Part shown: piece by piece, positions 1 to 60,769 of the stretch | Position numbering within the stretch: position 1 is the stretch's first letter | How the letters are laid out: every line of letters begins with the position of its first letter | Origin: a bacterium | GTDB taxonomy: Bacteria > Patescibacteriota > Minisyncoccia > Phycocordibacterales > CALRBL01 | Assembly (NCBI GenBank): GCA_027487075.1 | Contig: JAIYEG010000002.1 | Coordinates: 1,244-65,243 of the forward strand | Direction of reading: 5' to 3' | DNA: 64,000 nt | Translations under genes and position numbers: made by a program | Notes under the pieces: generated by a model | Database searches by the model: none | The model's input: the letters and a program-made list of their open reading frames with translations, nothing else | What the model was told of the DNA's origin: nothing

Positions 1-3
1 CTG

Positions 4-777
4 TTGTTTCCGAAAAAGGTTCGAGAAGAGGTGTGGGCTCTCTATCAGTTTGTACGTTTTTATGACGAAATAGTTGATACCCAAAAACAAGATCAGGAAG
101 CTACGCTCATTCATCATATTGCTCTATTTACTAACGCGTACGACCAAGGTATTCCCTCAGGTCTGTTTATTATTGATGAATTTGTACAACTCATGCATAA
201 ACACAAGATACCTCGTGAATATGCTGAGAGTTTTTTTGAGGCAATGAAAACAGATCTTTCCAAGGCTCACTATCAAACGTATCAAGAGCTTGAAGACTAT
301 ATGTATGGGTCTGCGACGGTGATTGGCTATATGATGAGTATTTTGATTGGATGTGCAGATCAGAATGCATTGCCCCATGCACGTGCGCTTGCTGAGGCGT
401 TTCAAATGACTAATTTCCTGCGCGATATCAAGAGTGACTATGAAGAACGTCATCGTATATACATGCCACGTGAAGACATGCAACGGTTCGGTGTTACTGA
501 AGAGCATATTAAGCAAGGGATTAATGATGATGCGTGGAAAGCCTTTGTGAAGTTTGAAATAGCACGCATTCGAACGTTATACCAAAAAGGCGTGGATGGC
601 ATTCATTACCTCAGCAAAGATGGACGCAAGGCGGTGTATGCTGCTGCATTGGTGTATGGTTGTATTCAGGAACAGATAGAGAAAGCTGATTATGATGTGT
701 TCTCTCGTCGTATTGTGGTGAGTCCGTTTGATAAGACCATGCTATTATTAAAAGCACTATGGAAAAGAAATCTGTAA
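4..777 (+). CDS. crtB: Phytoene/squalene synthase family protein (CrtB-like). It is 5'-partial, so the true start lies upstream of the window.
   Basis: The ORF runs from the window edge. The translation carries the trans-isoprenyl diphosphate synthase head-to-head fold hallmarks (YxxxRxxDExxD-like 'YQFVRFYDEIVD' and 'MTNFLRDIKSDYEER'). It overlaps the downstream crtI start by 19 bp. Confidence 0.8.
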   Translation: MFPKKVREEVWALYQFVRFYDEIVDTQKQDQEATLIHHIALFTNAYDQGIPSGLFIIDEFVQLMHKHKIPREYAESFFEAMKTDLSKAHYQTYQELEDYMYGSATVIGYMMSILIGCADQNALPHARALAEAFQMTNFLRDIKSDYEERHRIYMPREDMQRFGVTEEHIKQGINDDAWKAFVKFEIARIRTLYQKGVDGIHYLSKDGRKAVYAAALVYGCIQEQIEKADYDVFSRRIVVSPFDKTMLLLKALWKRNL

Positions 778-2264
778 TCATTATTGGGGGAGGAATAGGA
801 GGATTGGCATTGTCTGCGTTACTTGGCAAAAAAGGGTATAAGGTGACCTTGCTCGAAAAGAATGACACGGTCGGTGGACGTGCGCGTATCTTTCGACAAG
901 ATGGATTTTTGTTTGATATGGGACCAAGTTGGTACATGATGCCCGATGTGTTTAAGCATTACTTTGATCTTCTTGGTGAAGATATTTCTGAATACTATAC
1001 CCTCAAAAAGCTTGAGCCTTCATATCAAATAACGCTCAAAAGCGATGGTGCATCATATCTGTTTCACTCTGATATGAAAAAGAATAAAGCGTTCTTTGAA
1101 TCAGTAGAACCTGGTGCAGGAAAGGTGTTTGAGGATTTTATGAATGATACGAAGTATCAATACGAGATCGCAAAGAACGAGTTTATGTACAAAAATTATG
1201 ATTCTATTTTTGATTTTTTGAATCTTCGAGTGATGCGCGAAGGATCACGACTTCCTCTTTTTAAGAAACAAAAAGATATCATAGAGAAGAAATTTAAGAG
1301 TGAAATTCTTCGAAAGGCATTGCAATACCAAACGGTGCTTTTAGGAACTGCCCCTGGAGACACACCCGGTATTTATAGTCTCATGAACTATGTCGATCTC
1401 GTGCTTGGTGAGTGGTATCCCGATGGGGGAATCAGAGCAGTGCCTGAGTCACTTGAAAAAGTGGCACGAAAGTACGGTGTTACGATTCGCACCAACGCTC
1501 CCGTGCGCCGTATTATCATCGAACAAAACAATGCAAAAGGTGTCGAGCTTGAGAATGGCGAAGTGGTGCATGCTGATATGGTCGTTTCAAATGCCGACGT
1601 TGCATTCACCGATATGAAGTTGCTCGATGAAAAACATCGTGTCTATTCTGATGCATACTGGAACAAGCGTGTCTTGGCACCGAGTGCCTTTATCCTCTAT
1701 TTAGGAGTAAAAGACACTATTCCTGGACTCCAGCATCATAACTTATTGTTTACCAAAAATTGGGAACAGGGATTTGGAGAAATTTTCAAAACTCCAACAT
1801 GGCCGCAGGATCCTTCTATGTATATTTGTGTTCCTTCTAAGACTGATCCGACAGTGGCTCCACCTGATCATGAAAACTTGTTTGTGCTTGTGCCGATTGC
1901 CTCAGGACTCGAATACACAGAAGAGTTTGCAAAGGACTATGGTGACAAGGTTATCGATGAGATTGCGAAATACTATAATATTCCAAACCTCAAAGAGCGG
2001 ATTGTGGTGCGACGTCATTACAGTGTTAAAGACTTTATTGCAGACTACAATGCATTCAAGGGTACGGCACTAGGGCTTGCTCATACGCTGACACAAACAG
2101 CAATCTTTCGCCCAAACAATGTACACCCGCGCATTAAAAACCTCCTTTATGTAGGCGCAGGAACAAACCCAGGTATTGGTATGCCTATCTGTCTTATTAG
2201 CGCAGAGATTGCGTATAAGCGTATCGAAGGAATCAAAGATCCTTCACCCCTCAAGGAGTTATAA
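759..2264 (+). CDS. crtI: Phytoene desaturase (FAD-dependent CrtI family)
   Basis: 501 aa. It has the N-terminal Rossmann dinucleotide motif 'VIIIGGGIGGLALSALL' and 'GGRA' and a length and conservation pattern typical of CrtI. It is translationally coupled to crtB. Confidence 0.85.
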   Translation: MEKKSVIIIGGGIGGLALSALLGKKGYKVTLLEKNDTVGGRARIFRQDGFLFDMGPSWYMMPDVFKHYFDLLGEDISEYYTLKKLEPSYQITLKSDGASYLFHSDMKKNKAFFESVEPGAGKVFEDFMNDTKYQYEIAKNEFMYKNYDSIFDFLNLRVMREGSRLPLFKKQKDIIEKKFKSEILRKALQYQTVLLGTAPGDTPGIYSLMNYVDLVLGEWYPDGGIRAVPESLEKVARKYGVTIRTNAPVRRIIIEQNNAKGVELENGEVVHADMVVSNADVAFTDMKLLDEKHRVYSDAYWNKRVLAPSAFILYLGVKDTIPGLQHHNLLFTKNWEQGFGEIFKTPTWPQDPSMYICVPSKTDPTVAPPDHENLFVLVPIASGLEYTEEFAKDYGDKVIDEIAKYYNIPNLKERIVVRRHYSVKDFIADYNAFKGTALGLAHTLTQTAIFRPNNVHPRIKNLLYVGAGTNPGIGMPICLISAEIAYKRIEGIKDPSPLKEL

Positions 2265-3107
2265 AATAAGACGTGCGATGAGTTCGATTGAAAGGATTGC
2301 TCCCATGGCGCTATTGATGGTGGGAAAATATTTGTAGACGTTGAAAAGCGCTTCGCTGTTGTAGGGTAGTTTGTATGATCGCGCCATAAAGTATGAATAC
2401 ACGCAGGCACCAATGATGCTTGCATAAGGAAGAATGGGAAAGATTAAGATAGCACTTCCTACATATAATGCCCAGCAGAAGATAATGGTCGTTCGAGGTC
2501 CACAAAGAATGGCAATTGTTTTTAGGTGTGCGTCTTTGTCAGCATCGATATCGGGTACTGCACTGTAAGCATGCATGGCAATTGCCCACATCATACCTGC
2601 AATGATGCCAAGGTAGGGAATATCAGTGCCACCAGCAAGGTAATAGCCAAATACCCCTGTTGCGACATAGTGACCAGCAGAAAACAGAGAATCAATAAGC
2701 GGTTTTGCTTTTGCTCTGATCGGAGGTGCAGAATAAAACGTTGCACAAAAAAGAAAAACAGAAAACGAAATAATGAGTGGTGTTGTATGAGGTACAAACA
2801 ACAAAAAGGGAAGATTGGTTGCAATAATCCATATCCATAAGGTGCGATGACGCTCCGGCACTACAAGTGCTTCGTATGATTGCTTTTTGGGATTCAGCTT
2901 GTCGGTTTCGTAATCAAAAATATCGTTGATCCCATAAATTAAAATGTTGGCAGGAATGAGAAAGTAAATAAAAAAGATCCAAAACGAACTGTTGGTAAGA
3001 AAATTAAGTGAGGTGTGAGCGGATAAGGTGCCGATAATGCCGAATGTCGCTGCCTCATAGAGCCAAAAGCGAGGGCGGGATATTTTTATTACTTCTGATA
3101 ATTTCAT
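2259..3107 (-). CDS. UbiA-family prenyltransferase, possibly a lycopene elongase-like enzyme (CrtEb/LyeJ analogue)
   Basis: The 283-aa polytopic membrane protein carries the UbiA Asp-rich motif 'NDIFDYETD'. I placed the start at the internal Met 'MKLSEVIK' (ATG 3105-3107). The 136 codons further upstream overlap the divergent DUF2892 gene and look spurious. The gene is convergent with, and abuts, crtI. Confidence 0.7.
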   Translation of the reverse strand: MKLSEVIKISRPRFWLYEAATFGIIGTLSAHTSLNFLTNSSFWIFFIYFLIPANILIYGINDIFDYETDKLNPKKQSYEALVVPERHRTLWIWIIATNLPFLLFVPHTTPLIISFSVFLFCATFYSAPPIRAKAKPLIDSLFSAGHYVATGVFGYYLAGGTDIPYLGIIAGMMWAIAMHAYSAVPDIDADKDAHLKTIAILCGPRTTIIFCWALYVGSAILIFPILPYASIIGACVYSYFMARSYKLPYNSEALFNVYKYFPTINSAMGAILSIELIARLIL

Positions 3108-3129
3108 ATATAAATTGTATACTATATCT

Positions 3130-3330
3130 ATGAAAAAAAATATTGGAACGTTTGATCGGGTGGTGCGCCTTCTTCTTGCAGTAGCAGTAGGTGTTGCTGC
3201 ATATATGTCGACATCAGTGGTAGGACAAATTATTCTTGCGGTGGTTGCACTGTTTACCCTGTACGAGGCTCTCGCAGGTTGGTGCGCACTGTACGCAGTG
3301 ATTGGAAAGAATACCTGTCCGATTGAGTAA
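3130..3330 (+). CDS. DUF2892 (YgaP C-terminal-like) small inner-membrane protein
   Basis: 66 aa with two TM helices and the 'TFDRVVRLLLA...GWCALY' pattern typical of DUF2892. It sits directly upstream of the photolyase gene. Confidence 0.55.
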   Translation: MKKNIGTFDRVVRLLLAVAVGVAAYMSTSVVGQIILAVVALFTLYEALAGWCALYAVIGKNTCPIE

Positions 3331-3353
3331 AAGCTTTGTGATATGCTATACCT

Positions 3354-4727
3354 ATGAAAACGCTTGGTATACATATCTTTCGTCGTGACCTGCGACTCGA
3401 GGACAATACCGCTCTCAATGCGCTCGCTCGGGAAGTCGACACTATTCTTCCCGTGTTTATTTTTGACAAACGACAGGTGAATGAACATCCGTATCGAAGT
3501 GTCCCTGGACTTCAAATGATGTGTGAATCACTTGGCGATCTTGATAGAACGCTCGCAGAACATGGCGCTGCCCTCTATATCGAAAGTGGAGTAGCAGAAG
3601 AAGTAGTAGAAAAACTCATCAAGACACATACACCTCACGCACTTTCTTTCAACAAAGATTACACGCCGTTTTCCGTAGATCGTGATGAGCGGATCACAAA
3701 GGTGTGCGAAACACATGGTGTGAAGGTGATCGCAGAACACGATGTGACCTTGTATGCACCTGGCACTGTACTCACCAAAGATGGCAAGCCTCATAGTGTA
3801 TATACACACTATCGTGTGGCGACAGAAGTATTGCCACTTCCTGCAGTACATCGGCTTGCAGCAAGTGCGGTATTCGCAAGACGTGAAGGTGGTGAATCAC
3901 TCACTGAGTACATTGCTCGACTTGTGCCGCATCCTGCAGGGCTTCGTGTCAAAGGGGGAAGAACGGTAGCAAAAGACATGCTCCGCGCACTCTCTCACAA
4001 CAAGACATATGCAAAAGAGCGAGATTTCCCCGCGATCAACGCCACCTCACTTTTGTCGGCACACATAAAGTTCGGCACGCTTTCAATACGTGAAATATAT
4101 GTGTATGCAAAAACTCACATGCCACACCCCGACGTCTTTTTGAGGGAGCTCCTCTGGCACGACTTCTTCACGACGGTTGCAGCACTCACACCACATGTCT
4201 ATACGGGGGCATATCGAAAAGAATTTGACAAACTCAAGTGGGATAACAACAAAGAGATGTTTGAGCGATGGAAGGAAGGTAAGACAGGATTTCCTATCGT
4301 CGATGCGGGTATGCGCGAGCTTCTCATGACGGGCTACATGCACAATCGCGTGCGTATGATCGTTGCATCATTTCTTATCAAAGATTTACATATCGATTGG
4401 CGATGGGGAGAAAAATATTTTGCTGAACGGCTTACTGACTACGATCCTGCGGTAAACAACGGCAACTGGCAGTGGGTCGCGGGGACGGGGTGTGATGCAT
4501 CGCCGTGGTTTCGTATCTTTAATCCGTGGCTCCAACAGAAAAAATTTGATGCTGAAGGGGTGTATATAAAAAAGTGGGTACCCGAACTCGCAGATCTTAG
4601 TATCGATGATATTCACGACGAGCGAGGTGATGCTCGCCATGCAGTAGGTTATCCACTTCCTCTGTGTAATCATCGTGAGGAAGCGGCGCGGACCAAAGAA
4701 CTATACGGTATCTTAAAAAAGCAATAG
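3354..4727 (+). CDS. phrB: Deoxyribodipyrimidine photolyase (cryptochrome/photolyase family)
   Basis: 457 aa. It has an N-terminal photolyase alpha/beta domain ('IHIFRRDLRLEDNTAL') and a C-terminal FAD-binding domain ('WRWGEKYFAERLTDYDPAVNNGNWQWVAGTG'). Confidence 0.85.
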   Translation: MKTLGIHIFRRDLRLEDNTALNALAREVDTILPVFIFDKRQVNEHPYRSVPGLQMMCESLGDLDRTLAEHGAALYIESGVAEEVVEKLIKTHTPHALSFNKDYTPFSVDRDERITKVCETHGVKVIAEHDVTLYAPGTVLTKDGKPHSVYTHYRVATEVLPLPAVHRLAASAVFARREGGESLTEYIARLVPHPAGLRVKGGRTVAKDMLRALSHNKTYAKERDFPAINATSLLSAHIKFGTLSIREIYVYAKTHMPHPDVFLRELLWHDFFTTVAALTPHVYTGAYRKEFDKLKWDNNKEMFERWKEGKTGFPIVDAGMRELLMTGYMHNRVRMIVASFLIKDLHIDWRWGEKYFAERLTDYDPAVNNGNWQWVAGTGCDASPWFRIFNPWLQQKKFDAEGVYIKKWVPELADLSIDDIHDERGDARHAVGYPLPLCNHREEAARTKELYGILKKQ

Positions 4728-4748
4728 GACGATGATATACTAGTCACT

Positions 4749-6107
4749 ATGAATTTCACAAAAGCATATGTTATTGCCGTCGATATGGGATATGGTCATC
4801 AGCGTGCAGCGTATCCACTAAAAGATATTTCGACCACGCCTGAAAGTTGGAACATCGCTGATCCTTATATTATCTCTGCAAACAATTATCCTGGTATTCC
4901 AAAGAAAGATGTCAAAATGTGGAATAGTGGTCGTGGGGTGTATGAGTGGATCTCTCGTATGCGTGAAATGCCGTTCATCGGAGAGCGATTGTTTGCACTC
5001 ATGAATTATTTTCAGCGTATCGAGCATTTTTATCCCAAGCGCGATCTTTCCAAATCATCATCGCAGTTAGATTACTTATATTTTCTCATTAAAAAACGTG
5101 GACTTGGAAAGCATTTGGTGCATGAGCTCAATAAAAATCCGTTGCCGATGATCACCACCTTCTTCACCCCTGCATTTTCTGCTGAAGTACACGGGTATAA
5201 AGGTGAAATATATTGCTTGTGTACTGATACCGATATTTCTCGAGCGTGGGTACCACAACATCCTGAAAACAGCCGCATCATCTATCTTGCACCGAGTCAC
5301 CGTGTGCAAGAGCGACTTAAAGCATACGGGGTATCACCAGAAAAAATCATCACCACAGGTTTCCCGCTCCCGAAGGAGTTGGTAGCTCCCGACACTGACA
5401 AAGATACACTCCTCAGGTCAGTGGTGCTTCGTCGCATTATGCGTCTTGATCCTACCGGCACATTCCGTGAGAAGTTTAAAGATCAGATCAAGGCTTCGCT
5501 TGGCACTGAAGTGTATGGTTCTCCTGATGAGCCCGTATCAGTGGCATTTGCTATTGGAGGAGCGGCAGCGCAATACCAGATCGGTCTTGATGTGATCAAA
5601 TCACTCGCGCCTGATATTAAAAATGGAAAAGTAAAACTCAACCTCATTGCTGGTGTATCAAATAAGATTTATCGTATTTTTGAGCAGGCACTTAAGAAAG
5701 AAGGGCTCGATTTGTTCCGAGGTAAGGGTGTCGACATTATCTATCATCCACAGAAGATGGATTACTTTAAGGAGTTTAATCATCTTTTGCTCGACACCGA
5801 TATTTTGTGGACAAAGCCGAGCGAGCTTTCGTTCTACGCAGGACTCGGGCTTCCTATCCTTATTGCACCAACACTTGGCTCACAAGAAGAATACAATGAA
5901 GAGTGGCTTCATGTGGTGAATGCGGGTATTGGACAGGGAAATCCAGTGTATACCCGCGAGTGGCTCTTTGATTGGCTTGAGTCGGGTATTCTTGCAAACC
6001 ATGCACTCAACGGATTTCTGAATGTATCAAAACGTGGTGCGTATCATATCGAGAGTGTGGTGATCAAGAACAAGCCAGAACAGATGCAGGATATTCATTT
6101 GGTATAA
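4749..6107 (+). CDS. GT28-family glycosyltransferase (MGDG-synthase/UgtP-like)
   Basis: It has the N-terminal 'VDMGYGHQRAA' G-loop and a C-terminal 'GSQEEYNEEW' motif resembling the UgtP/MurG 'GQEEENA' donor-binding region. Confidence 0.5.
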   Translation: MNFTKAYVIAVDMGYGHQRAAYPLKDISTTPESWNIADPYIISANNYPGIPKKDVKMWNSGRGVYEWISRMREMPFIGERLFALMNYFQRIEHFYPKRDLSKSSSQLDYLYFLIKKRGLGKHLVHELNKNPLPMITTFFTPAFSAEVHGYKGEIYCLCTDTDISRAWVPQHPENSRIIYLAPSHRVQERLKAYGVSPEKIITTGFPLPKELVAPDTDKDTLLRSVVLRRIMRLDPTGTFREKFKDQIKASLGTEVYGSPDEPVSVAFAIGGAAAQYQIGLDVIKSLAPDIKNGKVKLNLIAGVSNKIYRIFEQALKKEGLDLFRGKGVDIIYHPQKMDYFKEFNHLLLDTDILWTKPSELSFYAGLGLPILIAPTLGSQEEYNEEWLHVVNAGIGQGNPVYTREWLFDWLESGILANHALNGFLNVSKRGAYHIESVVIKNKPEQMQDIHLV

Positions 6108-6116
6108 TGTGCGTAT

Positions 6117-7025
6117 ATGATCTTTAGTTCATTCTTCATTGCGATTATCGGCTACGCACTCCTTGCTGTGGTGGCTATTCTCGACAAGCTCATTCTTTCA
6201 AAGGCGCTGAATACGTCTTCTTATACGTTCTATTCAAATCTCTTGTTTGGGTTTGCCTTTGTGATGTTGCCATTTGCGGAGCGTATCTCTTTAGAAGGTT
6301 TTTTGTGGTCTCTCGCATCAGGTTTGGGATTTGGCTTTGCGGCATGGGCAATGTTTATCGCGCTTGAGAAGAATGATGCAACACACATTATTCCATTTAT
6401 TGGTGCGATGACTGCAGTATGTACCTACGCACTTTCGGCGGTGGTACTTGGTGAATCGCTCACTCTTATTCAGACACTTGGTATCGTACTCTTGGTGGTT
6501 GCGAGTTTTTTGTTTGCCTACGAGCGAGATCGTGTGCGAGTGACGGGTATCAGCATGGGAGTGGTATGGGGAATTGTATCTGGATTGTTGTTTGCAATAT
6601 CACATGTCACCGCCAAAGTGGTATATGAACAGTACTCATTTGTCACTGGTTTTGCATGGACTAAGGGACTTGTTGTTCTTGTGGCACTGTGTGTATATCT
6701 CTTTGGTAAGAAAATGGGGCCAGCAAAAACAAAGCAGGTACCACATGCTGCACCTCGAGGACAACATAATAATTTTATACTTATTGCGGTTGATAAAATT
6801 GCAGCATTGCTCGGTATCGTCGCAGTACAGTATGCAATGTCTATTGGGAGTGTGACTATTGTGACGGGGCTTGTGGGACTTCAGTATGCACTCATTCTTA
6901 TCTACGCTCTTATCTTTACTACGTTTACTCCTCGTTTCTTTACCGAATATATTACGCGCAAAGAAATATTATTTGAAGGAACAGCTATTCTGCTTGTTAT
7001 TGGTGGTGCGGTATTACTTGCATAA
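6117..7025 (+). CDS. DMT-superfamily (EamA-like) transporter
   Basis: 302 aa with about 10 predicted TM helices and the duplicated EamA-like architecture. Confidence 0.55.
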   Translation: MIFSSFFIAIIGYALLAVVAILDKLILSKALNTSSYTFYSNLLFGFAFVMLPFAERISLEGFLWSLASGLGFGFAAWAMFIALEKNDATHIIPFIGAMTAVCTYALSAVVLGESLTLIQTLGIVLLVVASFLFAYERDRVRVTGISMGVVWGIVSGLLFAISHVTAKVVYEQYSFVTGFAWTKGLVVLVALCVYLFGKKMGPAKTKQVPHAAPRGQHNNFILIAVDKIAALLGIVAVQYAMSIGSVTIVTGLVGLQYALILIYALIFTTFTPRFFTEYITRKEILFEGTAILLVIGGAVLLA

Positions 7026-7030
7026 AACAT

Positions 7031-8038
7031 ATGAAAAAAGTTCCACGACATATATATCTGAAAAGAATGGGGATAGTGTTTGGCGGACTCGTGGTGGTGT
7101 ATGCATTGATGTGGATCGGATCGCTCAAGACATACCCTACTGACTTCGGTATAAGCTTCAGTCCCGAGTATGCACGTTCGCTCGGTCTTGATGCACAAGA
7201 AACCTTTGATGCTATTTTAGAAGACCTCAAGCCTACCACCGTGCGTTTGGCTGTGCCTTGGAATAAAGTAGAGCCAGAACAGGGGGTGTTTGATTATGCT
7301 GAAGTTGATAGGTTGCTTGAAAAAGCGGGAACTGCAGGAAGTAAGGTGGTACTGACGGTCGGACAAAAAGTGCCACGCTGGCCTGAGTGCTACATTCCCA
7401 CCTGGGCAGCCGCACTTCCTAAAGAAGAGCAAGAACAACAGCTTCTCAACTACGTTGCAACCACTATCAACCGCTATAAAGACAATCCTGCAATCGAACT
7501 GTGGCAAGCAGAAAATGAGGCATTCATCAACTTTCCTTTTGGTGAATGTGATGCATTCGATAGGGATTCGGTCACCAAAGAAATTGCACTTATCAGGCAG
7601 CTTGACCCGACGCGTCAGATTGTAACGACCGATAGTGGAGAATTGTCGACCTATCGCGTGGCATCACGAGAGGGTGATATTCTTGGTACGACGTTATATC
7701 GCACGACACGCGTCTCAGGAGGTTTTATTGTGCGTTATGATTGGCTCCCCCCAGCATTTTATAAGTTGAAAGCACGACTATGGGGAAATGATTATGAACA
7801 TTTTTTTGTATCAGAACTTCAGGCCGAGCCTTGGTTTGAAGGTGGCATGCCAAGCACCCTTGAGGGCTTTATGAAAGAGAAAACCTTTAGTCCAGAACGC
7901 TTTAGAGAAAATATTGCGTATGCTCACAGAGTCGGTGCATCTCGCGTTTACCTGTGGGGAGCGGAGTGGTGGTACTTTATGAAGACAAAGATTGGTGATA
8001 GTCGGTATTGGGAGGTGGCAGAAGAGCTATTTCAATAA
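7031..8038 (+). CDS. Membrane-anchored clan GH-A (TIM-barrel) glycoside hydrolase-like protein
   Basis: It has an N-terminal TM helix and an 'ENE' acid/base-type motif ('WQAENEAF'), with similarity to the GH5/GH42 N-terminal barrel. Confidence 0.45.
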   Translation: MKKVPRHIYLKRMGIVFGGLVVVYALMWIGSLKTYPTDFGISFSPEYARSLGLDAQETFDAILEDLKPTTVRLAVPWNKVEPEQGVFDYAEVDRLLEKAGTAGSKVVLTVGQKVPRWPECYIPTWAAALPKEEQEQQLLNYVATTINRYKDNPAIELWQAENEAFINFPFGECDAFDRDSVTKEIALIRQLDPTRQIVTTDSGELSTYRVASREGDILGTTLYRTTRVSGGFIVRYDWLPPAFYKLKARLWGNDYEHFFVSELQAEPWFEGGMPSTLEGFMKEKTFSPERFRENIAYAHRVGASRVYLWGAEWWYFMKTKIGDSRYWEVAEELFQ

Positions 8039-8053
8039 ATCTTTACAAGTGAC

Positions 8054-8842
8054 ATGGTTCGTACTACGATGCGAGGTATGAAGAAATTATCATACTACAT
8101 CATTGCTCTTATTGGGTTTTCAGTGTTTTTGGTAGCTGTTCCCGCAGAAGCGAGTTCTGTATTTGTACCATGTGCGATTAGTCGTAATTTGACCGTAGGT
8201 TCTCAGGGTCAGGACGTTCGCTGTCTCCAAGACTACCTCCGCTCTCAGGGATATTGGATTACCTACTCAAGCGGATATTTTGGTGAGCAGACTCGTGTTG
8301 CAGTAGCTCAGTGGCAAGCACGCAATGGTATCTATCCAGCCAACGGCTACTTCGTCGTGTCTGGTTACAACGGCGGATATAGCAACACCAACCTCATGCG
8401 GGATGCTCAGAACGCAATCGAGAATGCTATCGATGATATTGAAGACAGCGATGAAAGCGATAATGATATCGAGGATGCTCGTGATGAGCTGTTCGATGCA
8501 GTACGCGCATACTTTGCGGGAGATTACGCTGAAGCAATCGACTATGCAGAAGAAGCTTCAGATATTGCCGCCAATGATCGTCACGGAAACAACGACTACG
8601 ATAAGCAGGATGCAAAAGACGCCATCGAAGATGCAGAGGATGCCATAGAAGACGCTCAAGATGAGATCGATGATGCAGATGATCGAGGTCGCAATGTGCG
8701 CGATGCCGAAGATCTTCTCGATGAAGCACAGGACTATCTCGATGATGCTGAGGATGCCTACGATGATCGTGACTATGATGAAGCAGTGCGCCTCGCTGAA
8801 AAGGCTGAGGATCGAGCAAACGACGCAATTGACGAACTCTAG
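8054..8842 (+). CDS. Secreted peptidoglycan-binding (PG_binding_1) protein with a highly acidic repetitive C-terminal region
   Basis: It has a signal peptide, a PG-binding domain ('GSQGQDVRCLQDYLRSQGY...TRVAVAQWQARNG') and an approximately 140-aa D/E-rich tail with reiterated 'DAIEDAEDA'-type units. Confidence 0.6.
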   Translation: MVRTTMRGMKKLSYYIIALIGFSVFLVAVPAEASSVFVPCAISRNLTVGSQGQDVRCLQDYLRSQGYWITYSSGYFGEQTRVAVAQWQARNGIYPANGYFVVSGYNGGYSNTNLMRDAQNAIENAIDDIEDSDESDNDIEDARDELFDAVRAYFAGDYAEAIDYAEEASDIAANDRHGNNDYDKQDAKDAIEDAEDAIEDAQDEIDDADDRGRNVRDAEDLLDEAQDYLDDAEDAYDDRDYDEAVRLAEKAEDRANDAIDEL

Positions 8843-9020
8843 AAGACCTGCTATAGTAGCAGGGTAACTCAATATCTCTCAGGTTCCCGTTCACGTGGAT
8901 AGAACTCACCTTCAATCGCATGACATTGTCATCGCCTAGAACCTTCGAGACCGAGCCCCGACTTATTATTTAATTGGCTCAAGGTTATAGGGTGTTTACG
9001 TGTAAGCCCTCATATACAGT

Positions 9021-10265
9021 ATGTATTATCGAATCGCGCGAAATGTAGGGAATTTTTCTCGTACAGGCGCACCAGCTACTCGTCCTTCTCGTGGAGGATA
9101 TAAAGGTTCTCGAGGACCATCTCGTGGTAACTCTCGAGGTAATCGTTTCGGAGGAAGTCGTATCGACGTGTCTCGTTATATTAGCAAAGCAGTTGTTTCT
9201 GTAGAAGAGCCTGTTGCGTATGTTCCAAAACATGCCTTTGCAGATTTTCAAGTGATGCCAGGTCTCAAGAAGAATATCGAGGTAAAGGGGTATGTTCTCC
9301 CAACACCAATTCAGGATCAATCAATCCCTGTTATCCTCGAAGGAAAGGATATCGTAGGTATTGCAAACACTGGTACCGGAAAGACCGCTGCCTTTCTTAT
9401 TCCACTTATCAACAAAGTGCTCACCGGAAAGCGTGAGCAGGTCCTTATCGTTGCACCTACGCGCGAGCTTGCACTTCAGATCAATGATGAGCTCGCAGGT
9501 TTTGCTGCAGGACTCCGTATGCACTCAGTGACCTGTGTTGGTGGAATGCCTATCGGTCGTCAGCTTGCAGGACTTCGCTACCACAATGAATTCATCATCG
9601 GAACACCGGGTCGTATCAAAGACCTTATCGAACGAAAGGCGCTTGATCTTTCGGGATTCAAGACCGTCGTGCTCGACGAGGCTGATCGTATGCTCGACAT
9701 GGGATTCATTAATGATATGAAGTTGCTTATGTCGAAGATGTCTAAGGAAAACCGACAGACACTCTTCTTCTCAGCGACGCTTTCACCAGAAATCGATCGT
9801 CTCATTAAGGATTTCCTTAAAGACCCTGTTCGAGTTTCAGTAAAGACTCAGGACACGGCGAAGAATGTCGAACAAGACATTGTGCGCGTTGGTCCTGGTT
9901 CAACCAAGATCGACACCCTTCACGATCTTCTTTCTAAAGAAGACTTCAAGAAGGTGATCGTGTTCGGACAGACCAAGCACGGCGTCGAAAAGCTCACCGA
10001 TCTTCTTCAAAAGCGAGGTCATAAAGCGGTCTCAATTCATGGAGACAAGAATCAGGCTCAGCGACAGCGAGCACTCAACGATTTCAAACAGGATCGTATG
10101 GATATTCTTGTGGCAACAGACGTTGCGGCGCGTGGCCTTGATATTAACGATATCTCACACGTGATCAACTACGAACTTCCCACATCTCACGAAGATTATA
10201 TTCACCGCATCGGTCGAACCGGTCGAGGAAATAAGAAAGGTAAGGCCTTTACGTTCGTAGACTAG
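9021..10265 (+). CDS. DEAD-box ATP-dependent RNA helicase with an N-terminal RG/RGS-rich extension
   Basis: It carries a Q-motif, motif I 'TGTGKT', 'VLDEAD', 'SAT' and 'HRIGRTGR'. Before the Q-motif there is an approximately 60-aa Arg/Gly/Ser-rich stretch. Confidence 0.85.
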   Translation: MYYRIARNVGNFSRTGAPATRPSRGGYKGSRGPSRGNSRGNRFGGSRIDVSRYISKAVVSVEEPVAYVPKHAFADFQVMPGLKKNIEVKGYVLPTPIQDQSIPVILEGKDIVGIANTGTGKTAAFLIPLINKVLTGKREQVLIVAPTRELALQINDELAGFAAGLRMHSVTCVGGMPIGRQLAGLRYHNEFIIGTPGRIKDLIERKALDLSGFKTVVLDEADRMLDMGFINDMKLLMSKMSKENRQTLFFSATLSPEIDRLIKDFLKDPVRVSVKTQDTAKNVEQDIVRVGPGSTKIDTLHDLLSKEDFKKVIVFGQTKHGVEKLTDLLQKRGHKAVSIHGDKNQAQRQRALNDFKQDRMDILVATDVAARGLDINDISHVINYELPTSHEDYIHRIGRTGRGNKKGKAFTFVD

Positions 10266-11997
10266 TTGGTTTTCCTTTCTCAAACTCACTCAGAAAAGCT
10301 CGTATCGACACATGCTCGGTGCGAGCTTTTTCTGTTGTGTGGCGAAGCGGAGTGAGAAGTGAGTGGAGATGACGTGTATCCATGATATGGGTGAGATGAG
10401 AAAGGGCTTGTTCAGCATGTGAAAGATGAGAAGAAATGTCGGTGATGATCAGAGGAAGAACGTGCTCGAAAAAGTGGGTGGTGAGATCGGTCCGACCACA
10501 CATGTGCACACTCGCGCTATTGATAAAACCGCGCTTAAGGTCATCAGGCCAATCGTGTGCGTCATCATTCATTTGACGTGCAATAAGGTAGTGTACAAAG
10601 AACGTGTGGAGGTGCTGGTACTCTGGCGAATCGGGAGTGAAGCCAAGACGTATCATGATGGTGAGTGGGCCACATGCGTGACCGATTGATTTCTCGGCAA
10701 GGACGTGGTGGCTGCCATAGTCGGGGCGGACCGCAGGCTTGTAGCAGTGTTCATATTCCCACCTGTTTGCCTGATCGATTGTGTCGAGGAGTGACAGAAT
10801 GGTGGAAAGGTGTGGTGAGTCTGCGAGTGCTTCACAAAAGAGCGAGGTGGTGGCACGCAGATGTGTGTTTGCTTCAGAGAGCTGTGAGACAGGGGCTTCG
10901 TGATCGAGAATATTGTCATATATGGTATACGCTCTCCATCCATGTTCTGTTGCCTTGCAGAGTGTTGTGATAGTTGCTTTGTTTAGTTGTTTTTTCAGAG
11001 ATGGCACGAGGTGATCGTAGAAAGCTTGTGGTAGAAGATGTGGGGTTTCGATGGTGAGGTGAGCAGGTTTGTTGCACTGTGTGGCGAGGTGTAAAGCTTC
11101 GAGGGTGAGTGCATGGGTAAGCGCGGGATTTCCGACATGTGTGTGCTTTCCACCCTTATCTCGTTCAAGGTAGAGGGGAAATGTTTCCCATGTGTGATTG
11201 CGAGCAAGTGCTTGGATATCTTCGTGAAGAAGGGTGGGTGGATATCCGAAGTTGATGAGAGTGGTCACACGAAGTGCTCGTTCAAGAATATTCTGGGGAG
11301 TGTAAGAAAGTGTGCGGGTGATAAATTCTTGAGTATGTGTTCCTGAATATCCCTTTGATATGAAATAGAGTGCCGAAAGCGGTGGATAATATGCAGAGAT
11401 AAGTGACGTTAGTGCTGATTCTATAAAAGCATTCAGATTCGGAAGCTCAACGTTTTGAAGTTTGAGAATATGTGCAATGTTTGCATTCACCACTACGTCT
11501 ACATCACTCCATTCGGCTGGTCGAGGGTGCGGATGAATCCATGTGTAGTAGGGTCCACCGAGTGTGGTTTCTGATAGAATGAGTATTTTGCTATATGACG
11601 CAAGCTTATTGGTGACAAAATCGGTGTGTCCTGCAAGGTGAAGAGCGGTGAGTGTGACTGAGAGGACGTCAAGATCATCAGGACATCGGTGTGTGAGATA
11701 TTGTGGTGATGAGCGTTTCCAGTAATTTATACATGATGCTTCATTAAATTCTGCCATGAGAAAAGTAGTTGCGCGTTGCAGCATATCTCTGACAGCTAGA
11801 TCGTGTGTGAGTGGTGCAAGTGCAATGACTATGAGACTAGTGATGAAAGTGGTGTGCTCATCGAAGGAACCGTCAGGAAGTTGTAGATGATGCATGTGGA
11901 TAGGGGAATGACATAGTAAATATGGTGCCCGAAGTGCTTGTTGAAACTGAAAGTGTGCCCTGAAAACCTGATTCAACAACATGCTTGGTGGTGGCAA
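10249..11997 (-). CDS. Large uncharacterized protein of about 550-580 aa, possibly with an alpha/alpha-toroid-like fold. It lies downstream of the sensor kinase.
   Basis: It is a long ORF with no recognisable catalytic motif. The annotated start overlaps the kinase gene by 125 bp in another frame, so the real start is probably an internal Met near 11895. Confidence 0.4.
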   Translation of the reverse strand: MPPPSMLLNQVFRAHFQFQQALRAPYLLCHSPIHMHHLQLPDGSFDEHTTFITSLIVIALAPLTHDLAVRDMLQRATTFLMAEFNEASCINYWKRSSPQYLTHRCPDDLDVLSVTLTALHLAGHTDFVTNKLASYSKILILSETTLGGPYYTWIHPHPRPAEWSDVDVVVNANIAHILKLQNVELPNLNAFIESALTSLISAYYPPLSALYFISKGYSGTHTQEFITRTLSYTPQNILERALRVTTLINFGYPPTLLHEDIQALARNHTWETFPLYLERDKGGKHTHVGNPALTHALTLEALHLATQCNKPAHLTIETPHLLPQAFYDHLVPSLKKQLNKATITTLCKATEHGWRAYTIYDNILDHEAPVSQLSEANTHLRATTSLFCEALADSPHLSTILSLLDTIDQANRWEYEHCYKPAVRPDYGSHHVLAEKSIGHACGPLTIMIRLGFTPDSPEYQHLHTFFVHYLIARQMNDDAHDWPDDLKRGFINSASVHMCGRTDLTTHFFEHVLPLIITDISSHLSHAEQALSHLTHIMDTRHLHSLLTPLRHTTEKARTEHVSIRAFLSEFEKGKPTSLRT

Positions 11998-19576: not shown

Positions 19577-20332
19577 ATGGAACGAAATATACACGCAGAC
19601 GTGATTGTATTTGATTTGGATAATACGCTGGCACGCAGTAAGACGATCATAGATGAAGAAATGGGTGGACTTCTTGCAGAGCTTCTCACCAAAAAGAAAG
19701 TGGCAGTGGTATCGGGTGGTAGTATGGCGCAGTTTAAGAAAGAGTTGCTCGATCCACTTCCTCCTCCATACGACAATTTACACTTATTCCCAACCGACGG
19801 TACCGCGTATTTTAAGTGGGACACCGCAACTCACGCATGGAAGCCTGTTTACCAAAAATTATTCAGCGAAGATGAAAAGGCAAAAATTCTCGCAGCATTT
19901 GCTGAGGTGTTGCCGGCTGCAGGATTCAGCGCAACAGGTGCAATTGGTAAAATCATCGAAGATCGTGGTTCGCAGATTACGTTCTCTGGACTTGGTCAGG
20001 ATGCGCCACTTGAACGCAAGCAGGTGTGGGATGCCGACAAACAGATTCGTGTAAAGATCGTGGAACTGCTCGCACCGAAACTTCCTGACTACGAACTCAT
20101 GATTGCGGGCACTACCTCAATCGACGTGACCGCAAAAGGCCTCGATAAGGCATATGCCATTCATAAGATCAGCGAGGAGCTTAATGTCGACGTGCCGAAG
20201 ATGGTGTTTATCGGCGATGCAATCTTCGAAGGGGGGAATGATTATCCAGTAGTATCAACAGGTGTGCCGTATATTAAGGTGACCGATCCTGAGGATACAA
20301 AACAGGTGATTCGTGAGATAATAAATATATGA
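19577..20332 (+). CDS. HAD-superfamily hydrolase (sugar-phosphatase-like, subfamily IIB-like)
   Basis: It has the N-terminal 'FDLDNTL' motif I and the C-terminal 'GDAIFEGGNDYP' motif IV. Confidence 0.7.
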   Translation: MERNIHADVIVFDLDNTLARSKTIIDEEMGGLLAELLTKKKVAVVSGGSMAQFKKELLDPLPPPYDNLHLFPTDGTAYFKWDTATHAWKPVYQKLFSEDEKAKILAAFAEVLPAAGFSATGAIGKIIEDRGSQITFSGLGQDAPLERKQVWDADKQIRVKIVELLAPKLPDYELMIAGTTSIDVTAKGLDKAYAIHKISEELNVDVPKMVFIGDAIFEGGNDYPVVSTGVPYIKVTDPEDTKQVIREIINI

Positions 20333-20928
20333 TACAACCATACGCAGCGCGCACACATGAAAAGATGAAAGAAGTTTTGATGGACCCAACCGCGCAAGGT
20401 CCTGAGATTCACTATTACATGATCCGCGGGGGAAGCGACAAGCGCAACGTGACGGTGTGGGAGACGGGAACCGTGGGTGGTGAATACATCAAAACCTATG
20501 GTCACTACCATATCGGCAACTTGTGCGAGATCTATTGGATCAAGCAAGGTGAGGGAATTATTCTGCTTCAAGAACGCGCAAGCACTGACCCCAATGAAAA
20601 GTCGGTGAAGAGTTTCAAGGCAGTGTATGCAAAAGCGGGAGATGAAGTGTTCATTCCTGCTGGTATCGGGCATCTCATGGTCAACACTGGCTCGACATGG
20701 CTCGTGACGGTCGATGATAGTCCGGTGAACTTCGAAGAAAAAGATCCGGTGTCGCTTCCTGGTCATGCTGATTACGAAAGCGTGCATAAGATGAAGGGGT
20801 TTGCATACTATGTGGTGAACAAGGATGGTGTGCCGACATTTGTGAAAAATGAAATGTATGATCAAGTGCCTGAGGTGGAGGTGCTGACCGCGGATGAATA
20901 TCGAGAGAAATATCCGCGGAAAGATTAA
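20329..20928 (+). CDS. pgiA: Cupin-type glucose-6-phosphate isomerase (archaeal-type cPGI)
   Basis: It has 'TYGHYH' and 'IPAGIGHLMVN' metal-binding His motifs equivalent to the Pyrococcus cPGI 'TKGHFH' and 'YWAHRTVN'. Its length is about 200 aa. Confidence 0.65.
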   Translation: MIQPYAARTHEKMKEVLMDPTAQGPEIHYYMIRGGSDKRNVTVWETGTVGGEYIKTYGHYHIGNLCEIYWIKQGEGIILLQERASTDPNEKSVKSFKAVYAKAGDEVFIPAGIGHLMVNTGSTWLVTVDDSPVNFEEKDPVSLPGHADYESVHKMKGFAYYVVNKDGVPTFVKNEMYDQVPEVEVLTADEYREKYPRKD

Positions 20929-20970
20929 ATGTAAATGGGAAGAAGAGTGCTGAATGTGTCTTTTTAGTGA

Positions 20971-21008
20971 TTTTTTTCTAAGGTCACAATTTGTGACCTT
21001 AGAAAAAA
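20971..21008. terminator. A 38-bp perfect palindrome (TTTTTTTCTAAGGTCACAATTTGTGACCTTAGAAAAAA) acting as a bidirectional terminator. This is copy 1 of 2.
   Basis: The 11-12-bp stem is flanked by T7 and A6 runs between convergent genes. It is identical to the element at 27731-27768 except for the loop orientation. Confidence 0.7.
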
Positions 21009-21077
21009 TAGTGAAATGAGTGTGTATAAAAAGAACCGCCTCCTGCACGAAGCAGGAGGCGGGGTTCGTTTGACTGT

Positions 21078-21377
21078 TCAATCGCCACCACGAAGTCGAC
21101 GAATGACGCGCACCATTTTGTCATCGGGATGCACGCCAGCACCAATCTTCGGATCAGGTTTAAGAACCGCATCGTTGTACCAACTGTGATTGAGGTACCG
21201 ACACAGAAGCCAGCAACCATCCTTTCGGACAATTGAATCTCTGTGATGCCTATACCAGTCGGCCGCGAGAGCCGTTTCAGGTGCATCTTGTACTTCATCG
21301 AGATCGACGAGGTACGTGTCGGCACCACCTTCCCAGAGGACGGTGCGTTCTATTAGGCGGTGAGCAATTTCGCTCAT
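21078..21377 (-). CDS. Hypothetical protein
   Basis: 99-aa ORF bounded by the palindromic terminator. No family recognised. Confidence 0.35.
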   Translation of the reverse strand: MSEIAHRLIERTVLWEGGADTYLVDLDEVQDAPETALAADWYRHHRDSIVRKDGCWLLCRYLNHSWYNDAVLKPDPKIGAGVHPDDKMVRVIRRLRGGD

Positions 21378-32536: not shown

Positions 32537-35500
32537 ATGAAAAAACATGCTGTGCTCGGATCAGGCATCCTTTTTATTCTTTCGGGTATTATTGCATTAG
32601 TAGCATTCTCTGGTGTGGTATCTGCGGCAACACTTGCGACACCTGTGGTTACCACAAAGACAAGTGCATTATGTGGTGGATCAATAGAGCTTTCGCTCAC
32701 GCGTCCGGTTGGTAGTGCAACAAGTTTTGCAATATATCGTGCTCCATCTACAGGTGGAGCACTTACCCTCATCGCCACAGTCCCCTCAACATCGGGGACA
32801 TTTTTGTATACAGATAGAAATCTCACTCCATCAACTTTATATTCTTATAGGGTACAAGCAAGAAGTAGTAAGCTTACTTCAGCCCAGAGCGCAACTAAAA
32901 GTGCAATGTCATCAGCAAGGTGTCCGGACGCACCAGTTAATCCCGTTAACCCAGTGCCACCACCTCCACCAGAAATTAACCTGAGCAAAGTAGAGGGTTG
33001 TGCCGATAATGCTCTAGTTAATGTTGCAATTTATGATACAACAAGAGTGTATGAACGTGCGTCAACCACTTTTCAAATCTACCGAGCAGTTGCTGGCTCG
33101 TCGTCGTATACGCTCATAGGGTCAATACCTTACGAGAGCTATATCACACATTATCGAGATAGGTCTTTTGTACCTGGTACTAACTATAGTTACTATGTCG
33201 TGGCAACGCTCAGAGGTCTTGCATCATCACAGGGTAGTCCAAAATCAGTGACTGCTCCCGCGGTATGTCAAAAAATTGAGACACCAACTAACTTCAAAGT
33301 GTCACCAGCACCTTCGTGTGGTAATAGAGTAACCCTTACTTGGGATGCGCCGAAGAACGGACGTGGGTACAATTATCAAATATATCGTTCACTGTATCCG
33401 CAAGATGACAATCGTTTCCAAGTGGTTGTAGAGAATAGTGTAAACCTTATACCATACAGTACTTCGACATACTCTTTTACTCTTAGTACTCCGCCAACTG
33501 GTACCGTCTACTATAAAATTAGGGCGACGGATCCAACGAATGCCAAACAACCCGCATCTGATTTCACCCCAATTGTAGGATCTGTCGGGTCAGGAAAATG
33601 TTTAACAGCCCCTGTTGTTAGGGCCGCAACTGCTTCATCGTGTGGTGGTAAAACAAACGTAAGCTGGAATGCAATTGCTGGAGCAACAGGATATAGAGTT
33701 TACGCCTCACCAGTATCTACAGGTGCTTATAAGGCCATTGGAGTGGTGACAAGTACTACTTTTGTTGCGAGTTCAGCGCCGCGCACCATACAGTATTATA
33801 AAGTTGCTCCTATGATTGGAGTGTCAGAGTCACCAACAAATTCAGTAGGGGTAAGTGCGCCCTCGTCTATTGAGTGCTCTACCGGTCAGACATTACAACT
33901 ACGTTCTAGTGGATCGCTCGAACAGTGCTCATTTTCTACACGACTCTCTTGGGATACCGTTCCTGGGGTAGCTGAATATCGATTGTATCGAGTCATTGGG
34001 CCAAATTCTGCAGTAGTATATACAGGTGATCAAACCAGCTTTGATGTTATGACATATTTTGGGGATTATTCTTTCTATGTTGTGTATGTGGATGATACAG
34101 GTAAAGAAAATGGTAAAAGTAATATTGTCAGAGTCCCTTCATCAAATTTTAATTGCCCACTGACGACGAACGTTTCTTTGGGAGGATGGAATGAAAGTGT
34201 CTATGAACCATACATTGAGGCGGCTTCTGGGATTGATGAGTCTTGGTCGGGAGATGGAGATACAAATGGAAATGGATACTGTGAATTTGGAGAGCGATGT
34301 TATCCTTCAGCAGAGGGTGAGTCAGATAATAATGTATTTGATAATTCCGGATTAAATTCTTCTCTTGATAGAGTTGGAGATACCGATATTGGTATTGCTC
34401 CGATCGCGCTTAACCCATCGATACGTAGTAGTGGGATTGATAGAGGTAAGCGATATCTTAACTTCATTGCAGATTTTGGAACAGAACCATCGAGACAGCT
34501 TCCACCTGATTGTTTTGAATCGATGACATCTTACAAAGATAGTAAGGGAAGATATCTTCCATCGGCTACTTCTTCGCGTATGATTGAAGATGCAACTACT
34601 AAGTTTGATTTAGGTGGTAATAATAAATTTTTTGGAGTACTCATGAAGCTTGATACAGGCAAATGTAAAGATAAGACACTTGCTCAACAACTCACTACAT
34701 TCTCGTACCCACCTTCTCAGCCTTTCTCTGATAAAGCAACGTTTAACAATAATGTGATGCTCACTGATGATAGTATTCGATTAAATTATAATGCATATGA
34801 TTGGGGTTCGGGAACCTTTGCAAACTTTCCACAAGGAGTAAGTGCTGATATTCCTTGGGCAGACAAATATCAATTTGGAGTTAAGAGTTTCAAGGCACGT
34901 TATTCTGGTGAATTAACTCAAAAGTATATTTCCGGATACACTGATTATGAGCCTGATGGTACAGAAAAGTGGATAAAAACAGAAGGTAGTCTTTCAATGA
35001 CCGTTGCAGGGCTTACGAATCTTACTGAGGTTCTTGAACCAGGTAATGCTCAAGAAGAGTTAAGGAAAACAGGTATATTTAAAGGTACTGGTGTGGGTAG
35101 TGTGTCAGTTACATACCCCAAGAATTTTGTTAGTTGTGAGAGTTCATCATACTCGGGTACGTTTCCAGTTGAAATCACTGTAGATCTTACTAAAGCAGAA
35201 AAAGTTGCGGCGGGTAATTCAGTTTATCCATATACGGTAGATTTTACTGCGCCGATTAACGTAAAGGGTAGCGCTGTAGTTAAGGAAATTGAACGATGTG
35301 ATGGTGAAAGCGAACGGGCATATGAGCATTATCCTGAATTCAGCACCCAAAATAATTCAAATCCGAAAAATAATATACCTTATTATTCAGCACAAGGTAC
35401 TATAGGTGGTAAAACTACTGAGCTCCGCTTTGTTAAGAAGGCGGTTGATGGTTATCCTTGGACAGATTGTCCTCCTCCATGGAGTGGTTCCGCAGAGTGT

Positions 35501-60755: not shown

Positions 60756-60769
60756 CTGATGGCACTGCT

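Follow-up and report, generated by a model that had tools for sequence, protein, structure and literature searches.

Gene clusters for C50 carotenoids of the bacterioruberin type are known from haloarchaea (Haloarcula japonica, Halobacterium), and in the Halarchaeum and Halocatena loci used here for comparison (L083 and L085, respectively) the annotated arrangement is crtB-crtI-prenyltransferase-cruF. In Candidatus Patescibacteria from Lake Baikal, lyeJ, crtD and cruF were reported and a role of C50 carotenoids in membrane adaptation was proposed; in a Baikal metagenome-assembled genome (MAG) of Saccharibacteria, cruF lay far away from the lyeJ and crtD genes (Haro-Moreno et al. 2023, PMC9948471). 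A third system, the actinobacterial decaprenoxanthin-type cluster, has the composition crtE-crtB-crtI-crtYe/Yf-crtEb and is represented below by an Arthrobacter locus (L084), assigned to this type by its gene order, a weak Lycopene_cyc match and its PRK13105 score. Furthermore, carotenoid genes accompany a photolyase or an ultraviolet (UV)-damage endonuclease in the neighbourhoods of zinc-finger heliorhodopsins (PMC8612252), and in some other ecogenomics literature on the candidate phyla radiation (CPR) carotenoids and photolyase go unmentioned. Here, we analysed a stretch of 64,000 nt, hereafter the window, from the patescibacterial assembly GCA_027487075.1 (contig JAIYEG010000002.1, positions 1,244 to 65,243). 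Its left edge carries a carotenoid block, composed of crtB, crtI and a convergent lyeJ-like gene of the UbiA family, next to a gene for a small DUF2892 membrane protein and a DNA photolyase gene (phr), which had been pointed out in an earlier note on this DNA.

We consider it likely that this block is a crtE-crtB-crtI operon with a convergent lyeJ-like gene, that it yields a C50 carotenoid of the bisanhydrobacterioruberin type and that it forms a light-protection neighbourhood together with phr. The analysis shows which genes are present and to which families they belong, that the four-gene module is conserved and that it repeatedly lies near UV-repair genes; the activities of the enzymes, their product, co-regulation and the physiological role are inferred. 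The haloarchaeal cluster is the closest of the described systems: the same three enzyme families are adjacent, the desaturase is matched best by the CrtID model, the prenyltransferase passes the cut-off of the PRK12875 model, and the Asp-rich and signature motifs are shared. However, sequence identities are low (32–34% for LyeJ, 42–43% for CrtI and 33–38% for CrtB), the lyeJ-like gene of the window is convergent to crtI whereas the haloarchaeal genes are co-directional, crtE is part of the operon, no cruF lies nearby, and the host has a reduced bacterial genome. The Baikal Patescibacteria belong to the same phylum and have the same gene families; unlike those genomes, for which cruF was reported and in which the genes are scattered in the Baikalibacteria bins, the present locus is a tight crtE-crtB-crtI/lyeJ module without cruF within 64 kb, and in contrast to that report the adjacency to UV-repair genes was surveyed here, across 77 loci. 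With the decaprenoxanthin-type cluster the locus shares crtE-crtB-crtI plus an elongase of the UbiA family and, by prediction, the C50 backbone, but its prenyltransferase reaches 156 bits on the PRK13105 model against 450 bits for the Arthrobacter protein, the C50 cyclase subunits are not among the conserved neighbours, and its desaturase scores higher on CrtID than on crtI_fam, the opposite of Arthrobacter CrtI. As in the heliorhodopsin neighbourhoods, genes of carotenoid biosynthesis and UV repair are co-located, but no rhodopsin or light-sensing regulator is present among the scanned genes of the window. Bacterioruberin-type genes in Patescibacteria are already known, having been published in 2023; what is added here is the tight four-gene architecture and its breadth, the prediction of a CruF-less pathway and the recurrent UV-repair neighbourhood.

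The four-gene carotenoid module

Gene positions were taken from a map of open reading frames (ORFs), the raw sequence, and Pfam and NCBIfam scans of the window (Table 1). All five genes listed in the earlier note were recovered at their positions with strong family matches, and its statements on their arrangement were borne out as well: the ATG of crtI (759) lies 19 nt inside crtB, whose stop codon occupies 775–777, as expected from the translational coupling it had proposed, and the stops of crtI and of the UbiA gene said to converge on it overlap by 6 nt. The note had, on the other hand, seen no crtE and had taken the pathway to be incomplete within the window; the upstream sequence shows that crtE is present. 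The Logan contig L001 (7,790 nt) agrees with the window at every position of a 7,658-nt stretch and reaches 132 nt further left; in this contig (67–909), as in the NCBI contig, crtB is complete, with 280 amino acids (aa) and a start 66 nt before position 1 of the window. Another gene, of which the C-terminal 20 residues can be read (...AVVEGGVWGDIATMVYKRTS*), ends 6 nt before the crtB start in L001, and its tail is similar to the C-terminal ends of polyprenyl synthases whose genes lie ahead of crtB in relatives. A homology search with the crtE of a relative identified the gene as P0298 (332 aa, PF00348), located on the same NCBI contig of 153,077 nt and having exactly the C-terminus AVVEGGVWGDIATMVYKRTS, and a further Logan contig (L088; 1,719 nt) carries crtE followed by crtB after 3 nt. 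Because the C-terminus of P0298 matches the tail that stands before crtB and crtE precedes crtB in L088, the order of the operon is crtE-crtB-crtI. The window takes in the 3' two-thirds of this operon, and the sequence covered upstream of crtE amounts to 87 nt.

The crtB product was scored by NCBIfam at 156.3 bits for HpnC, 150 for CrtB and 149 for HpnD, all below the respective cut-offs. The crtB of an annotated haloarchaeal crtB-crtI-prenyltransferase-cruF cluster showed the same ambiguous HpnC/CrtB pattern, and the DxxxD motifs (DEIVD, DIKSD) are present in the translation. As the partner enzymes are of the CrtI type rather than the HpnE type, and as the haloarchaeal crtB is equally ambiguous, the gene is read here as encoding a putative phytoene synthase, a function favoured over the alternatives by its context (a CrtI-type partner and crtE). 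Homologues of crtE were named geranylgeranyl diphosphate synthase by the Joint Genome Institute (JGI).

The desaturase belongs to the Amino_oxidase family, has the GxGxxG motif for binding of flavin adenine dinucleotide (FAD) as IIGGGIGG (residues 8–15), and is the single crtI-family gene product of the window (n=1). It scored 495.5 bits on TIGR02734 (crtI_fam; cut-off 238.1), 606.6 bits on NF058655 (bifunctional phytoene desaturase/3,4-desaturase CrtID) and 42.6 bits on HpnE. The ranking of CrtID above crtI_fam is common to the window enzyme and the desaturases of the haloarchaeal clusters (750–754 versus 489–491 bits), and is reversed in the ordinary CrtI of Arthrobacter (453.5 versus 553.3 bits); desaturases of CPR relatives reached 486–642 bits on CrtID, one of them above the cut-off. 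A grouping of crtB and crtI with enzymes of the HpnD/CrtN type, which the earlier note had named as the outcome that would speak against its pathway, was not observed for the desaturase as far as the difference between the CrtID and HpnE scores shows, with no CrtN-specific model among the matches. In Haloarcula japonica, knockout and complementation assigned both CrtI and CrtD activity to C0507 (PMC11946383), and a single bifunctional CrtI/CrtD desaturase is the economical reading for the window enzyme. The name of the NF058655 model is probably based on that work; a literature search under the name 'CrtID' returned nothing relevant.

For the UbiA-family protein, the best curated match was NF009516 (PRK12875), at 225.1 bits above a cut-off of 205. 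What this model stands for was checked on haloarchaeal replicons located by tblastn, where the genes between crtI and cruF in Halarchaeum and Halocatena scored 397–426 bits. The second-best NCBIfam model, PRK13105, gave 156.3 bits, below its cut-off of 217. The Arthrobacter gene that fits the latter model lies in a stretch without listed annotation and is read as CrtEb-type; upstream of it, in a crtE-crtB-crtI-like order, lies a weak Lycopene_cyc match (E 6.8e-4, 20.6 bits versus a cut-off of 27), as would fit a C50 cyclase subunit. The MenA and ubiA_proteo models gave no match to the window protein at E<=1e-3, and on a profile of the CPR family E. coli UbiA reached 12 bits and MenA was undetected. 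According to the alignment, the conserved positions of the two Asp-rich motifs (N61-D62-xx-D65-xxx-D69; D186-xxx-D190) do not vary within the CPR family or between it and LyeJ, CrtEb and E. coli UbiA, and the motifs SRPRFW, YSAPP and SAxPDI are common to the window protein and haloarchaeal LyeJ but are not found in the CrtEb-type sequence. In a distance-based neighbour-joining (NJ) tree with one CrtEb reference, the CPR proteins, haloarchaeal LyeJ and homologues from Acidobacteriota and Alphaproteobacteria formed a clade that excludes CrtEb, UbiA and MenA (bootstrap 93/100). The link to the lycopene elongases of C50 producers drawn in the earlier note is thus upheld by PRK12875, the motifs and the tree, and the clustering with menaquinone or ubiquinone prenyltransferases that it had raised as the competing outcome was not seen in either the tree or the model matches. 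The assignment as a putative lycopene elongase is well supported by these comparisons; assignment to the LyeJ rather than the CrtEb type is moderately supported, because the reciprocal profile scores are close and there is a single CrtEb reference. It should be noted that a maximal ORF of 418 aa for this gene was rejected, since homologue lengths and an independent gene call give 282 aa (3107–2259).

Related gene arrangements tie the prenyltransferase to the other enzymes. In three natural fusions (P0205, P0218 and P0260; 559–630 aa), an N-terminal SQS_PSY domain is joined to a C-terminal LyeJ-like UbiA domain, which is Rosetta-stone evidence connecting the CrtB and UbiA activities. An Acidobacteriota homologue (L063), 49% identical to the window protein, adjoins a gene for CruF (PF04240). 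That locus has all of crtB, crtI, lyeJ and cruF, a crtE-like gene lies close by on the other strand, and its cruF (L063:8339–9694, minus strand), divergent from the lyeJ-like gene, encodes a fusion of CruF (Caroten_synth) with a NUDIX domain that may be isopentenyl diphosphate (IPP) isomerase-like. Overall, the UbiA family comprises 359 clusters at 50% identity (E<=1e-30).

Conservation in Patescibacteria and linkage to UV repair

A survey of neighbourhoods with one genome per GTDB species gave 80 loci; 77, many of them truncated, came from MAGs labelled as Patescibacteria and the remaining three from Acidobacteriota, Hyphomicrobiales and Alphaproteobacteria. Among the 77, crtI was found in 70, usually convergent on the UbiA gene, crtB in 65 and crtE in 49. 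The overlap of crtB and crtI was most often 19 nt (16 loci), with most others between 4 and 31 nt, and the commonest overlap between the convergent stops of the UbiA gene and crtI was 4 nt (23 loci). The four-gene module is conserved and under evident selection, being neither a stray transfer nor a binning error. The best 120 UbiA homologues listed were metagenomic and 52–68% identical to the window protein, those with names belonging to Paceibacteria, Taylorbacteria and Pacebacteria; in clusters at 90% identity, every window protein that was looked up was a singleton. The genes for a DEAD helicase and a SpoU methylase, which are neighbours in the window with no part in carotenoid synthesis, recur in the patescibacterial loci. 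The 'CPR-like' origin proposed in the earlier note agrees with the homologue labels, the share of patescibacterial loci, these recurring neighbours and the housekeeping content of the window. Its view that carotenoid synthesis is not expected in such genomes is out of date, as the module occurs in about 70 species-level genomes and lyeJ, crtD and cruF had been reported (PMC9948471).

In at least eight patescibacterial loci (L020:8128–8538, L011, L017, L018, L019, L036, L039 and L043), a further gene on the UbiA strand stands between crtI and its lyeJ-like partner and encodes a small hydrophobic protein (approximately 135–160 aa) with probable membrane-spanning segments. These proteins fall into two related sequence clusters (hhalign probability 86.6%), have no Pfam match and are absent from the window; they may have an accessory or modifying part in the carotenoid pathway that has gone unrecognised.

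The photolyase of the window was matched best among NCBIfam models by an 8-hydroxy-deazaflavin (8-HDF)-type model (327.9 bits) and PRK10674 (315.2 bits), both below cut-off, and the DASH model gave 235.6 bits; judged by these sub-cut-off class models it appears nearest to class I cyclobutane pyrimidine dimer (CPD) photolyases. In seven related loci a photolyase gene is located 10–64 nt from the UbiA gene, in two arrangements. Four close relatives (L006, L017, L018 and L019) have a photolyase 65–71% identical to that of the window, divergent from the UbiA gene across a gap of 10–64 nt. In three loci of a distant clade (L059, L060 and L079; approximately 50% UbiA identity), another photolyase (31–33% identity) is encoded co-directionally and directly upstream of the UbiA gene; the phr-UbiA pair of L059 is itself preceded by the gene of a protein that has a DUF2892-like region. 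Along with photolyase, other UV-repair genes occur within 10 kb of the module among the 77 loci: uvrC in 13, uvrA in 12, uvrB in 10 and the gene of endonuclease III (nth), assigned from sequence motifs and not scanned, in 7. In the window, uvrB, uvrA and uvrC sit together in a stretch of 9 kb, and TGT comes shortly before uvrB. In close relatives these genes directly flank the carotenoid module, which suggests that an ancestral UV island was broken up here by a rearrangement. Because the adjacency of photolyase, uvr and nth genes recurs in different arrangements, the data argue for a real association of the module with UV protection, and the light/UV-protection island described in the earlier note gains support from their recurrence beside the module in relatives.

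Predicted product and competing explanations

In the proposed pathway, CrtE would supply geranylgeranyl diphosphate, two molecules of which would be condensed to phytoene by CrtB. The single CrtI-family desaturase would make lycopene and probably also carry out the later 3,4-desaturations, like its closest characterised relatives in Haloarcula japonica, and the UbiA-family enzyme would add a C5 unit from dimethylallyl diphosphate (DMAPP) to each end of lycopene and hydrate the 1,2 bond. This would end in a C50 carotenoid of the bisanhydrobacterioruberin type, acyclic and hydroxylated, or in dihydro forms of it. Bisanhydrobacterioruberin has the formula C50H72O2 and a mass of approximately 705 Da. 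The cyclase that the earlier note had counted as a missing step is not needed in an acyclic bacterioruberin-type pathway, and none is expected because the predicted product is acyclic. Full bacterioruberin is not predicted from the locus because no CruF is nearby: searches by tblastn with two haloarchaeal CruF sequences and with a three-sequence hidden Markov model (HMM), applied to every six-frame ORF in the window and in the loci, detected no CruF (PF04240) in the 64-kb window or within ±10 kb in any CPR locus, the sole positive being the Acidobacteriota locus described above. A distal copy of cruF may be present elsewhere in this genome. The pigment would sit in the membrane, acting as a screen against photo-oxidative and UV damage and as a membrane stiffener, and the divergent photolyase operon would repair UV lesions, so that together with the pigment genes it would form a light-protection neighbourhood. 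A retinal-based reading (rhodopsin/blh) was rejected for the window, in which no such Pfam family occurs among the scanned genes, small ORFs and five Pfam-less ORFs aside.

Along with the local lack of a CruF, several observations weigh against this reconstruction. CrtE and CrtB score below every equivalog cut-off, and the family models do not give their product chain lengths; the CrtID score of the desaturase is just under the cut-off of 640; the window prenyltransferase shares only a third of its residues, at the values given above, with haloarchaeal LyeJ; and the reciprocal CPR profile barely separates LyeJ (161–177 bits) from the single CrtEb-type sequence (152 bits). In this genome uvrA, uvrB and uvrC do not adjoin the carotenoid block but lie approximately 40–50 kb from it. 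Promoter and terminator scans of positions 1–9000 gave counts at the shuffled expectation (20 versus 18.2 and 7 versus 6.8, respectively), and co-regulation of crt and phr thus stays a conjecture.

Some of these points feed alternative explanations. That the enzyme is CrtEb-like, or another lycopene-modifying prenyltransferase that lacks hydratase activity or stops at C45, giving a different C45/C50 pigment (e.g. flavuxanthin-like), would fit the second rank of PRK13105, the model matched so strongly by the Arthrobacter gene, the identity of 35.8% to that gene (tblastn), which is similar to the identity with LyeJ, and the closeness of the reciprocal profile scores. However, the protein falls below the PRK13105 cut-off and above that of PRK12875, carries the LyeJ signature motifs, belongs to the bootstrap-supported clade without CrtEb and is paired with a desaturase of the LyeJ-associated CrtI/D type, and the C50 cyclase genes (crtYe/Yf), for which no targeted search was made, are missing from the neighbour families that are conserved at the CPR loci; we regard this alternative as improbable. 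That the gene encodes an unrelated quinone or lipid prenyltransferase merely abutting crtI could be argued from the annotation '4-hydroxybenzoate polyprenyltransferase', which many sources give to the family, but it is scarcely credible in view of the missing MenA and ubiA_proteo matches, the 12 bits of E. coli UbiA and the undetected MenA on the CPR profile, the convergent pairing with crtI in about 70 loci and the CrtB-UbiA fusions. An equally slight chance is given to the production of C30, squalene-derived compounds (HpnC/HpnD or CrtM/CrtN type) in place of C40-based carotenoids: HpnC is the top NCBIfam match of crtB, marginally ahead of the CrtB models, and the models do not fix how long a chain CrtE makes, yet all these crtB matches are far below cut-off and equally ambiguous in the haloarchaeal cluster, the desaturase is of the CrtID/crtI_fam and not the HpnE type, the JGI naming of the crtE homologues points to geranylgeranyl diphosphate, and neither hpnE nor shc is found among the scanned window genes.

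The adjacency of carotenoid and photolyase genes could, in turn, be a by-product of common descent and of the compaction of the genome, the two gene sets being coupled neither in regulation nor in function. This has some grounds: phr is within 10 kb of the module in only 9 of the 77 loci, the loci with divergent phr and UbiA genes are close relatives (63–68% UbiA identity), neither a regulator common to the crt block and phr nor a promoter above chance level turned up, and the downstream partners (DUF6938, EamA and the glycoside hydrolase) are not conserved near the module. On the other side stand the reappearance of phr-UbiA adjacency in the distant clade, with another orientation and another type of photolyase, the flanking of the module by uvrA, uvrB, uvrC and nth in many loci, and the clustering of carotenoid and photolyase genes as a known theme of light response (PMC8612252). 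We consider the by-product explanation rather unlikely, and retain the C50 pathway with its light-protection neighbourhood as the preferred one. A bolder extension is put forward tentatively: a subset of ultra-small Patescibacteria may make a C50 carotenoid with four genes, one CrtI+CrtD desaturase and no CruF, the module, along with photolyase and uvrABC, travelling and being selected as a portable sunlight-survival island, and the small hydrophobic protein possibly adding a new modification step in some lineages.

Other features of the window and significance for Patescibacteria

The start codons of the UbiA gene and the DUF2892 gene are divergent and 22 nt apart (3108–3129), and the promoters of both units (lyeJ-like; DUF2892-phr) must therefore lie inside neighbouring coding sequences. 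Gaps of 10–17 nt occur between divergent phr and UbiA genes of relatives. A weak sigma-70-like match (3095–3123, plus strand) overlaps the start of the UbiA gene. Rfam and tRNA scans of the window returned a tRNA-Ala as their sole match, and no riboswitch was found near the carotenoid block. The genes for DUF6938, EamA and glycoside-hydrolase-like proteins probably share a transcription unit with phr; in none of the other loci do they adjoin the module. The DUF6938 protein, whose gene begins 21 nt after phr, has a faint match to diglucosyl-diacylglycerol synthase (PRK13609, E 9e-4) and could be a glycolipid or carotenoid glycosyltransferase. Among the ordinary housekeeping genes of the window are those for enolase, iPGM, TGT, a Mur ligase, ABC exporters, a type IV pilin-like protein and UvrB, UvrA and UvrC. 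At E<=1e-5, Pfam gave no match for five ORFs of 251–1062 aa; sizeable ORFs of this kind are typical of CPR genomes. One gene encodes a protein with both NQR2/RnfD-like and NAD-binding oxidoreductase domains and is followed by the gene for an ApbE flavin transferase, a redox module that is unusual for a reduced genome.

Table 1. Features of the 64,000-nt window (positions counted from its first nucleotide).
Feature	Position	Strand	Length or spacing	Evidence or remark
crtB (phytoene synthase-like, SQS_PSY)	1..777	+		5' end cut by window edge; PF00494 E 6.1e-60
crtI, phytoene desaturase of CrtI/CrtD ('CrtID') type	759..2264	+	501 aa	crtI_fam and CrtID matches
lyeJ-like UbiA-family prenyltransferase, putative lycopene elongase/1,2-hydratase	2259..3107	-	282 aa	PF01040 E 5e-19; PRK12875 225 bits
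Small YgaP-like/DUF2892 membrane protein	3130..3330	+	66 aa	PF11127 (YgaP-like_TM) E 2.6e-18; 66-aa gene call in L001
phr, DNA photolyase/cryptochrome family protein	3354..4727	+	457 aa	PF00875 E 1e-34; PF03441 (FAD_binding_7) E 3e-76
DUF6938 glycosyltransferase-like protein, EamA transporter, glycoside-hydrolase-like protein	4749..8038	+	gaps 5–21 nt	Pfam matches
DUF6938 protein alone	4749–6107	+		PRK13609, faint
Pfam-less ORF	10249–11997	-		
Pfam-less ORF	20242–21081	-		
Pfam-less ORF	32537–35725	+		
Pfam-less ORF	35722–36477	+		
uvrB	44615–46777			
uvrA	47951–50587			
uvrC	52182–53405			
tRNA-Ala	54065			
Pfam-less ORF	54877–55788	+		
NQR2/RnfD-like and NAD-binding oxidoreductase protein, then ApbE flavin transferase	59235–61639			

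Many record titles of the module loci name rivers, lakes or ponds, which suggests that surface-freshwater members of the group are among the carriers of the module. The locus adds detail rather than a new principle, because bacterioruberin-type genes in Patescibacteria had already been published, and its compact set of four genes could be used in engineering as a minimal route to C50 carotenoids. Patescibacteria are thought to lack most of the biosynthesis of lipids and secondary metabolites and to take their membrane lipids from their hosts. The product of a conserved and apparently self-contained C50 pathway, a membrane-spanning carotenoid, would be one of the few membrane components that these organisms make themselves. 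Together with the recurrent UV-repair neighbours, this raises the hypothesis of pigmented, sunlight-adapted cells among the CPR. Should the portable sunlight-survival island be confirmed, host-dependent Patescibacteria that scavenge their lipids would be pigmented cells tuning their own membranes.

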